From Escherichia coli (GTDB taxonomy: Bacteria; Pseudomonadota; Gammaproteobacteria; Enterobacterales; Enterobacteriaceae): DNA of 64,000 nt. Below, one piece after another: positions 59,083 to 61,775 of the stretch. The notes beneath the pieces are model-generated. The model did no database searches and was not told the origin of the DNA. It was given only the letters and a program-made list of their open reading frames with translations. The stretch lies in NCBI RefSeq assembly GCF_024700885.2, contig NZ_CP117016.1; one strand, written 5' to 3'. The position numbers and the translations under genes were made by a program. Numbering within the stretch: the first letter of the stretch is position 1; the number at the start of each line of letters is the position of its first letter.

Positions 59083-60570
59083 ACCGACTCCTGATTCAAT
59101 TGTATGATGGTATTCATTGAACAGAACAATGGATCCCCCACCATTGCTGACCGCAAAACATTTACACGATCAATACTGCGCGTAATATAATTAAAAATCC
59201 AGCATTCTCAATCCATTACGAAAGAAGATGGCATTGTGGAATAGCCAGACTTCCTCGTGTTAACGTCCGACAAAATGCGTCATTGACAGCGGTTTCTGTG
59301 GATTGACACATTTCATTCAGATAATGAATTAATGCTACTGCCGGACCAACCAGCAAACGGGCATTGTGTTCTGAAATCCAGGCTATTGATTCAACGTCAG
59401 CGACAGATCTGCGCTGTAAAAGAACTTGTAAAACAACGCAATAGAATTATCCGGAATGGTGGCGACTATGCACTAGAACACCACAATTTCGCTCTCTCGG
59501 TAAGGCACTGTCACAGCATTCAACAGAATGTGACTTGCCAGATTTATTAGCGCCACCAGATGTTTAACCGGGTAACCACGACCCAGTCGGGGATATATTC
59601 CATCTTCTCGCTGACATCATCAAGAATAAAAAGGTTTATCACACTCAGAGCAACGTTCTTCAGCAGGCGGGATAATTCTTCAACATTTAAAAGATGTGTT
59701 ATTAAAGGCATACAAACTGGACGTATTGTATTTTCTTTTGGTGGTTGACCTAAGGTAGCAGTTTATCCTGATGCGCTGAGATTTCTGTAATATCTACGTC
59801 AACATTCTCCTCGAATAGAAAATGCAGCCTCGGCAAGTGATTCACATTTTTTAACAAAACGTTGTTAGCGTGCCATTTTCAGAAGCTCTCCAAGAAAGCG
59901 AATTCTTTTCTCAAATTCTGCATTCTCAGACACAGCTTTCTACTCCATGGCAATGGCCCAAATACGAAGTTGCTCAGGATCATTAGTGGTGCTGAGAAGT
60001 TAAATAACCATGCGGAGTACCACTCGTCATCACGTATTTATATATCATGAAGCTATTGTTGTGTTTTGTACATCAGTAGATGTATTCTGATATACTCCTT
60101 TTGCTAGACATAACCTTTCACCTGCTTGCAAAGCTTCTGTGTTCTGACATTGCCAAATTGTTGCAATTCTGTATCCAGCCTTCTTTCAGTCATAGCTTCG
60201 GGCCGCGATAAGACTCACTGATCTGACCCTGATTCCTCTTGCAGACTTTATAGACCAATTAAAATGCAGTTTCTGCAGGTCAACGTCTGACCATCATTGT
60301 CATCACTCTGGCCATTAGAGTAACCTTCTGCATTCATCCTTTTGTAAAAAGTTTATGTCAGTATCAGCAATTAACCGGACCTGATACTGATATGAGTCTT
60401 ACCGCATATACGGTCAATTTCAGCAATTAATTACATTATCCACGCCAAAGTGTTTGTCATCGCAATGATGGTACCTTCTTTCAGACACCATTTTTTCAAC
60501 TCCGTTTTCCACGGACCGCACTCTTATGTCAAGAGTGCGGTGATCCTACCCACGTAATATGGACACAGGC

Positions 60571-61393
60571 CTAAGCGAGGTTCTTGTTTTCAAATTGTTC
60601 CGGACTGAGGCCGCCACACCAACTGTGCCGCCGCCACCGATTGTAATCACATTCGATATAATTAAACACCGTTGCCCGCATTATTTCCCGGCTGATAAAG
60701 TGTTCTCCATGGATACATTCCACTTTCAGCGAATGAAAGAAGCTTTCCACGCAGATTATGCCGCTTCAGTTGCGCCTGATAATCTGCTGAACAGTACTGG
60801 CCTCCACGGTCCGTGTGAACGATAACGTTCCGGGGCCTCTTACGCCGCCATAGCGCCATCTGCAGGGCATCGCAGGCCAGTTGCGCCGTCATGCGTGGCG
60901 ACATTGACCAGCCAATAACGGCACGTGACCACAGGTCAATGACCACTGCCAGATACAGCCAGCCTTCATCTGTACGTAAGTACGTGATGTCTCCTGCCCA
61001 CTTCTGGTTCGGGCCACTGGCGTAAAAATCCTGCTCCAACAGATTTTCTGACACAGGCAGGCCGTGTGCGCGGTAGCTGACCGGGCTGAACTTCCGGGAG
61101 GCCTTTGCCCTCAGTCCCTGACGGCGCAGGCTTGCCGCCACGGTTTTTACGTTAAAGGGGTAACCCTGAGCACGCAGTTCATCCGTCAGGCGTGGGGCAC
61201 CGTAACGCTGTTTTGACCGGGTAAAAGCCGCGAGGACAACGCTGTCGCAGTGTTGGCGGAACTGCTGACGCGTGCTTATCCTTGTCCGCCGCTGACACCA
61301 CGTATACCAGCCGCTGCGGGCCACCCGGAGCACGCGGCACATTGCTTTGATGCTGAACTCAGCCTGATGTTTTTCAATAAAGACATACTTCAT
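60571..61393 (-). pseudogene. insF: IS3 transposase OrfB (InsF) disrupted by a 44-bp deletion/frameshift
   Basis: N-terminal 216 residues match InsF up to ...[11 protein letters not shown]; the C-terminal ...[58 protein letters not shown] is encoded in another frame; about 14 codons (SMSAKGCCYDNACV) are absent. Confidence 0.65.
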
Positions 61394-61689
61394 TTCAGGC
61401 GCTTCGCGAAGTATGTCGCGGCCTTTTGGAGGATAGCCAGCTCTTCATCCCGTTCTGCCAGCTGGCGTTTGAGACGTGCAATCTCGGTAGACATCTCCAG
61501 TTCACGTTCAGAAGACGTCTGCTGATTTTGCTGTTTACTGCGCCAGTTGTAGAGCTGTGATTCATACAGGCTGAGTTCACGGGCTGCGGCAGTAACACCG
61601 ATGCGTTCAGCAAGCTTCAGGGCTTCACTGCGAAATTCAGGCGAATGCTGTTTACGGGGTTTTTTACTGGTTGATACTGTTTTTGTCAT
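61390..61689 (-). CDS. insE: IS3 transposase OrfA (InsE)
   Basis: 99 aa [52 protein letters not shown]... Confidence 0.85.
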
Positions 61690-61775
61690 GTGAGTCACCT
61701 CTGACTGAGAGTTTACTCACTTAGCCGCGTGTCCACTATTGCTGGGTAAGATCACCTTATTGCTGCGCTGATAAT

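Follow-up and report, generated by a model that had tools for sequence, protein, structure and literature searches.

A 44-bp-deleted IS3 copy joining the ends of a 13-kb deletion in the cobU-adjacent island of Escherichia coli

The IS3 copy and its transposase genes

The window, as the whole analyzed stretch of 64,000 nucleotides of E. coli DNA is called here, contains a minus-strand copy of IS3 that is 1214 bp long, has IS3-type ends (TGATC...GATCA), and lies between a truncated palindrome and a fragment of a phosphotriesterase-related (PTE) gene (Table 1). It is located in the cobU-adjacent genomic island of E. coli, where K-12 carries CP4-44. From position 2716 to position 64000 (61,285 bases compared), the window was 100% identical to E. 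coli MLI114 (NZ_CP117013.1), a human stool isolate from Mali. In that genome, RefSeq labels the element “IS3 family transposase, frameshifted” and its neighbor an incomplete phosphotriesterase-related gene, both as pseudogenes; the frameshifted state of the IS3 and the incompleteness of the PTE gene are therefore already known. The element, an IS pseudogene that RefSeq had already annotated and that sits at a deletion scar, is ordinary and would carry little weight alone, since genomic islands of E. coli routinely contain defective IS copies at deletion junctions. A promoter and terminator scan of the region returned nothing exceeding shuffle expectation.

Table 1. Features of the IS3 copy and its flanks, in window coordinates
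Feature	Position	Strand	Basis
IS3 copy with 44-bp internal deletion	60541..61754	-	Alignment; RefSeq label of the identical MLI114 sequence
IRL, complete	61716..61754	-	Equal to reference IS3 end TGATCTTACCCAGCAATAGTGGACACGCGGCTAAGTGAG
IRR, complete	60541..60579	-	Equal to reference; imperfect inverted repeat with IRL, ~39 bp
orfA, intact, 99 aa plus stop, HTH_Tnp_1	61390..61689	-	Equal to reference; Pfam PF01527, E = 5e-10
CCAAAAG in orfA/orfB overlap, likely programmed -1 frameshift region	61423..61429	-	Unchanged from full-length copies
Truncated orfB, 243 codons (216 native plus 27 out of frame), then stop	60662..61393	-	ORF list, translation comparison
Out-of-frame native OrfB C terminus, E231 to A288, one Q-to-K polymorphism	60571..60744	-	Matches full-length OrfB
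Deletion junction, sole surviving repeat copy	60745..60754	.	TTCCACGCAG on plus strand, CTGCGTGGAA in IS3 orientation
Truncated palindrome, IRR-side flank, cobU-side endpoint	60509..60540	.	Comparison with K-12 and R3
PTE-related fragment without codons 1 to 61, IRL-side flank, other endpoint	61755..62606	+	R3 comparison

The 5'-TG...CA-3' imperfect terminal inverted repeats of the IS3 family are present at both ends, starting with TGATCTTACCC... at 61754 and TGATCCTACCC... at 60541, and copies that carry the annotation “IS3-like element IS3 family transposase” were 99.9 to 100% identical to this one over 1214 bp. Alignment with a full-length IS3 of 1258 bp (NZ_CP159529.1, L002:501-1758) revealed one 44-bp gap and one SNP and no other difference. 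An earlier sequence-only reading, which had set the 1214 bp against an IS3 length of 1258 bp and proposed a 44-bp internal deletion, was thereby borne out. The idea that 1214 bp could itself be the reference length found no footing: the full-length IS3 copies measured in complete genomes were 1258 bp, and a search of 5,426 complete E. coli genomes yielded 18,492 places with IS3 homology versus 563 with the deletion. The SNP lies near the end of orfB, causes a Q-to-K change, and also occurs in a full-length IS3 of strain MB06233. The source genome of the window has two further IS3-homologous places.

The identical 1214-bp sequence was present at the same locus in seven independent complete genomes (100% identity over the whole element), these being the deletion copies that also share the Q-to-K SNP. 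Because these seven genomes agree and a junction-specific probe matched 529 genomes, the gap is not an assembly artefact. That it stems from sequencing or assembly, or that 1214 bp is the normal form of IS3, is extremely improbable: several of the 1258-bp copies are annotated with an intact frameshifted CDS, the 529 genomes carrying the junction were assembled independently, and the comparisons turned up nothing in favor of either idea. An artefact or a wrong reference length was accordingly discarded on the strength of the alignment, the 1258-bp copies, and the junction count. A rare private mutation, as the seven whole-element matches taken by themselves might have implied, was also ruled out once the junction probe had reached 529 genomes.

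As the earlier reading had stated, OrfA is intact, being identical to the reference. It is followed by orfB in the -1 frame, and this layout and the overlap are identical to those of copies annotated with a programmed frameshift, by which the two frames would be fused. RefSeq annotates the programmed frameshift in the CDS of full-length copies that share the CCAAAAG overlap sequence, and CCAAAAG is presumably the exact slippery site of published IS3 work. OrfB is identical to the native 288-aa protein up to ...RHNLRG. The frameshift had been placed between HNLRG and ESFFHSL, with the C terminus continuing in another frame, and this proved correct: a 59-aa open reading frame (positions 60571 to 60750) holds the native C terminus, from ESFFHSLK... 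to the terminal ENKNLA.

The native OrfB triad consists of D135, D195, and E231, forming the DD(35)E motif. In the window, D135 and D195 are kept, the deletion takes the stretch that joins RHNLRG to E231 (SMSAKGCCYDNACV), and E231 and everything beyond it are out of frame, leaving the DD(35)E motif incomplete; the conserved YDNA segment is also lost. In the Pfam search, the truncated protein matched rve only as far as position 93 of the 102-position profile and lacked the rve_2 and rve_3 matches that full-length OrfB gives. Because the frame shift after residue 216 removes E231 and the YDNA segment, the window copy should be unable to make an active OrfAB transposase and to move autonomously. 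Set beside IS3 of E. coli (1258 bp; IS3 family, IS3 group), it is thus alike in its inverted repeats, orfA, and the orfA/orfB overlap, with 99.9% identity over the 1214 retained bases, and differs in the missing 44 bp of orfB, which truncates OrfAB before E231, in the absence of a 3-bp target duplication, and in the predicted loss of autonomous transposition.

Flanks of the element and the 13,021-bp deletion

On the plus strand, the flanking sequence reads ...GTGCGG up to the element and resumes with CCTTATTG... beyond it, placing CGG next to one end and CCT next to the other; the 3-bp target duplication is absent, as had been noted from the sequence. Duplications of 3 bp (TTG) do flank IS3 elsewhere. 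In strain R3, the two flanks that the window IS3 joins are not contiguous and are separated by 13,021 bp, so that a deletion of 13,021 bp relative to R3 is present at this IS3. The lost interval begins at a palindrome that lies upstream of yoeA and ends at codon 61 of the PTE-related gene, and in R3 it contains yoeA, ibrBA, a PIG-L deacetylase gene, yaiP, an acetyltransferase gene, yaiO, an IS66 fragment, the PfkB kinase, glutamine amidotransferase, and DMT transporter genes, and the first 61 PTE codons. The rearrangement of the adjacent PTE-like gene that the sequence-only reading had suspected was therefore real, and it took the form of this deletion, which removed the start of the gene. An IS lacking a target duplication here cleanly marks the 13-kb loss of the yoeA-to-PTE cluster of the cobU island.

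Both endpoints are sharply defined. The palindrome is complete in K-12 and R3 (CCACGGACCGCACTCTT-ATGTC-AAGAGTGCGGTCCGTGG), where the sequence runs on into yoeA; of its right arm, the window keeps only the first 10 nt. The intact PTE gene encodes 344 aa (R3, L006:5818-6852) and is present in ~2,100 other genomes. The window fragment covers positions 37 to 297 of the Pfam PTE profile, versus 3 to 297 for the intact protein, and the HEH (HxH metal-binding) motif at PTE residues 23 to 25 falls within the lost part. Among the 5,426 genomes, the IRL-PTE junction was found in 491 and the flank-IRR junction in 470, and the genomes with these junctions include O26:H11 11368, strain 042, NCTC86, and ETEC H10407. 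Together with the 44-bp junction, the two IS3/flank junctions are usable as lineage markers for ~9 to 10% of complete E. coli genomes.

Probes for a progenitor, that is, IS3 with a 3-bp duplication at either the PTE site or the palindrome, matched 0 of the 5,426 genomes in both cases. Two independent IS3 insertions nearby were found, both in yoeA and in the same orientation, which attest to IS3 activity in this part of the genome: one has a TTG duplication, and the other, in strain E308, has no duplication and is accompanied by the loss of ~230 bp of yoeA.

The 44-bp deletion and its occurrence elsewhere

IS3 contains two exact copies of the 10-bp sequence CTGCGTGGAA in direct orientation, 44 bp apart, at positions 1001 and 1045 of the element. 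The endpoints of the gap coincide exactly with this repeat, the missing 44 bp being one copy plus the 34-bp spacer; the inspection for short direct repeats near position 60750 that the earlier reading had recommended thus recovered a 10-bp repeat with one copy left, at 60745 to 60754. RecA-independent deletion by slipped misalignment occurs between short, closely spaced direct repeats. The window case resembles it in the loss of exactly one repeat copy and the spacer, with 10-bp repeats 44 bp apart, and differs in being known from end products alone. Slipped misalignment between the two CTGCGTGGAA copies inside orfB would account for the loss. Three 10-bp direct repeats tie as the longest in IS3, the 44-bp pair being the closest spaced and the others lying 111 and 117 bp apart. 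As a test of the slippage prediction, probes for the 111- and 117-bp junctions, unable to seed on intact IS3, were run and matched 8 and 4 E. coli records, respectively, all annotated as IS3 family transposase. Because these predicted deletions between the other 10-bp repeats also exist, we infer that slipped misalignment is the best-supported mechanism of the 44-bp loss, and repeat-mediated slippage would be a general decay route of IS3. A possible alternative that would give the same junction is microhomology-mediated end joining, such as might be linked to the IS-excision enhancer (IEE). A literature search retrieved no relevant account of a 44-bp deletion in IS3. In genome annotation and IS typing, IS3 alleles with 44-, 111-, and 117-bp deletions are to be expected.

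The distribution of the deletion was determined with a 40-bp probe that spans the junction and cannot seed on full-length IS3. It matched 563 places in 529 of the 5,426 complete E. coli genomes, with up to 4 places per genome and 21 places on plasmids, a figure that overstates recurrence because most of these places represent one inherited locus. In PLSDB, the junction matched 17 plasmids, all from E. coli. At an intergenic site between a glycosyltransferase-9 (GT9) gene and shiA, strain FAM21845 carries the deletion allele with a 3-bp TTG duplication, and in strains 873.10 and MB06233 that site, with an identical duplication, is occupied by a full-length IS3. Because a full-length IS3 occupies this site in those two strains, the deletion appears to have arisen, or to have been copied, in place in FAM21845. 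Two further deleted copies reside on the ETEC plasmid p120899_146 and have a different SNP haplotype (511A/904G); over the whole plasmid, no combination of their flanks gives a duplication. Of the places with the deletion, ~140 lie outside the cobU locus; 4 deletion-bearing loci were examined for duplications, and none of the 4 was a duplicated insertion known only in the deleted form. The 44-bp deletion allele of IS3 is common, repeat mediated, and probably recurrent and does not represent a private mutation.

Routes to the two deletions and related systems

On the preferred account of the deleted copies at other loci, the same repeat-mediated deletion would recur, or spread by gene conversion, among IS3 copies elsewhere. 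Alternatively, the 1214-bp form could be a nonautonomous IS3 derivative that has spread through mobilization in trans by intact IS3. Such mobilization is possible in principle because both inverted repeats are intact, and in this respect the immobility that the sequence-only reading had thought probable stands for autonomous movement, with E231 lost. The 563 places, with up to 4 per genome and some on plasmids, the duplication in FAM21845, and the two other IS3-homologous places in the source genome are also in keeping with a mobilized form. The FAM21845 copy was nevertheless rejected as proof, since the same duplicated site holds a full-length IS3 in 873.10 and MB06233; both p120899_146 copies lack duplications, and no case requiring transposition of the deleted form was found among the 4 loci. 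IS3-family transposases, moreover, act preferentially in cis, and we regard spread in trans as distinctly unlikely. Another candidate, which we consider possible though not probable, is a single origin of the deletion, with gene conversion as its sole means of reaching other IS3 copies. In 873.10, the IS3 copies at cobU and at the GT9-shiA site are both full length, and the related strain FAM21845 is deleted at the GT9-shiA site; the two sites are ~12 kb apart in R3, and FAM21845 has an integrative element between them. A second deletion-bearing copy was sought at the cobU locus of FAM21845 and was not located there, the integrative element displacing the region. Against a single origin, the deletion occurs on at least two SNP haplotypes, the chromosomal one and the plasmid-borne 511A/904G, and the 111- and 117-bp analogues point to slippage between the 10-bp repeats of IS3.

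The order of the two defects at the cobU locus is informed by full-length copies at that locus. In strain ZYS9073, a full-length IS3 lies between exactly the same two flanks, with both junctions identical to those in the window. A probe extending from within the 44-bp segment into the cobU-side flank showed that the flank-IRR junction carries a full-length IS3 in ~37 genomes (including ETEC H10407, 873.10, and ZYS9073) and the 44-bp deletion in ~420. Because full-length IS3 sits at the identical junction in these ~37 genomes, the missing duplication and 13-kb deletion on the one hand and the 44-bp deletion on the other are separate, independent events. Most simply, the 13-kb deletion is probably the older one, because the full-length copies share the same junctions, which assumes that they are ancestral there; possibly, full-length copies were instead restored at the locus by gene conversion from another IS3. 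For the 13-kb deletion itself, homologous recombination between two directly oriented IS3 copies is the most likely route and would leave one IS3 without a duplication. A one-step deletion by the transposition machinery, either by intramolecular attack of an IS3 end or by an adjacent deletion involving transposase and IEE, would agree with the absence of both simple-insertion progenitor junctions from the 5,426 genomes and with the E308 copy, which lacks a duplication and ~230 bp of yoeA. For IS3-family elements, adjacent deletions involving IEE are on record (PMC9943667); according to an overview of that system, to the contrary, copy-out-paste-in transposition should regenerate the donor and should not by itself produce such deletions (bioRxiv 10.1101/2023.06.07.543989). 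Because IS3 inserts repeatedly nearby in the same orientation, a transient two-copy state is plausible, and we judge the one-step route to be rather unlikely. It is very probable overall that the window element is a defective, vertically inherited IS3 shaped by the 13,021-bp deletion and then by the 44-bp slippage deletion.

A further reading, which is highly speculative and to which we give very little credence, is that intact OrfA, together with a DNA-binding but catalytically dead OrfAB', may inhibit intact IS3 in trans, the 10-bp repeat being a built-in hotspot of self-inactivation that makes repressor copies. If true, it would explain the ~90% majority of the deletion allele at the cobU locus across diverse lineages, as well as its reappearance in, or copying into, other IS3 copies.

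Several known systems resemble parts of this history. Deletions formed by IS629 with the IS-excision enhancer in EHEC likewise have an endpoint exactly at the IS terminus, retain the IS, lack a target duplication, and remove kilobases of neighboring DNA (PMC9943667); unlike them, the window offers a likeness in the end product only, no progenitor having been found among the 5,426 genomes. The loss of ISApl1 from Tn6330 via microhomology, which leaves terminal scars (reviewed in bioRxiv 10.1101/2023.06.07.543989), has a parallel at this very locus in isolate NRZ96052a, where a deletion between two TAATATGGAC copies, one in IRR and one in the PTE flank, has left no more than the first 24 bp of IS3. 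This scar belongs to a related genome, whereas the window keeps a nearly complete IS3. The rbs deletions associated with IS150 in the Lenski long-term lines are reportedly another instance of IS-adjacent deletion by an IS3-family element.

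Deleted forms of IS3 in other records

Internal deletions between the other two pairs of 10-bp direct repeats of IS3 were detected by junction-probe matches only: a 111-bp deletion (IS3 positions 868/979) matched in eight E. coli records, and a 117-bp deletion (positions 100/217) in four. Among the E. coli records carrying the 111-bp or 117-bp deletion (matched records H370-H381), many were plasmids according to these junction-probe matches.

The 44-bp-deleted form was present in two copies (sequence records L020:36646-37859 and L022:1960-3173) on the ETEC plasmid p120899_146 (NZ_CP025917.1), a virulence plasmid encoding CS5/CS6, EatA, and ST enterotoxin. 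Both copies lacked target duplications and had the single-nucleotide polymorphisms 511A/904G in common, and related ETEC plasmids showed the same two-copy pattern.

IS3 insertions and losses around yoeA and the phosphotriesterase-related fragment

Independent full-length IS3 insertions, oriented like the window copy, were found in yoeA of strains E308 (L024:2501-3758) and 65COLEC (L025:2501-3758). The 65COLEC copy was flanked by a TTG duplication; the E308 copy had no duplication and approximately 230 bp of yoeA was gone, and the E308 site is another small IS3-adjacent deletion.

In E. coli NRZ96052a (NZ_OZ501657.1, L003:3942-3965), at the locus equivalent to window 60541-61771, only the first 24 bp of IS3 remained, TGATCCTACCCACGTAATATGGAC, and this remnant directly abutted the phosphotriesterase-related (PTE) gene fragment. 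The deletion ran between a pair of 10-bp repeats, TAATATGGAC, and the junction is a microhomology scar left by loss of the insertion sequence. On the cobU side of the window copy, the endpoint of the 13-kb deletion fell within a perfect palindrome upstream of yoeA (window 60509-60540), which consists of a 17-bp stem and a 5-nt loop and whose complete form is found at L004:4910-4948. Fragments of other genes and mobile elements lay on both sides of this IS3.

Repeat copies and gene debris around the window IS3
Feature	Window position	Location
TAATATGGAC, copy 1	60556-60565	within right inverted repeat (IRR) of IS3
TAATATGGAC, copy 2	61772-61781	within PTE flank
Cobalamin-biosynthesis gene fragment and IS4 fragment	within 59216-59574	cobU side of IS3
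Gamma-glutamyltransferase fragment and ISL3-family transposase pseudogene	within 62646-64000	other side of IS3

Prophage segment and yersiniabactin island

A lambdoid or Rac-like prophage segment with hokD, ydfA-D, dicB, and an exonuclease gene occupied window 2716-13522, adjoining tRNA-Ser and mtfA; its integrase (window ~12355-13405) was annotated as frameshifted. According to the annotation of the identical MLI114 sequence, window 14514-45036 contained a complete yersiniabactin High Pathogenicity Island integrated at a tRNA-Asn gene, comprising the integrase, ybtS-X-Q-P-A, irp2, irp1, ybtU-T-E, and fyuA. On the fyuA side, an IS1A copy (window 45607-46645) adjoined an incomplete glycosyltransferase family 9 gene, represented by its 5' fragment and lacking the C-terminus. 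In strain R3, yeeJ-type inverse autotransporter genes lie between fyuA and the glycosyltransferase family 9 gene, and the IS1A site at the right border of the island looks like a second IS-associated deletion.
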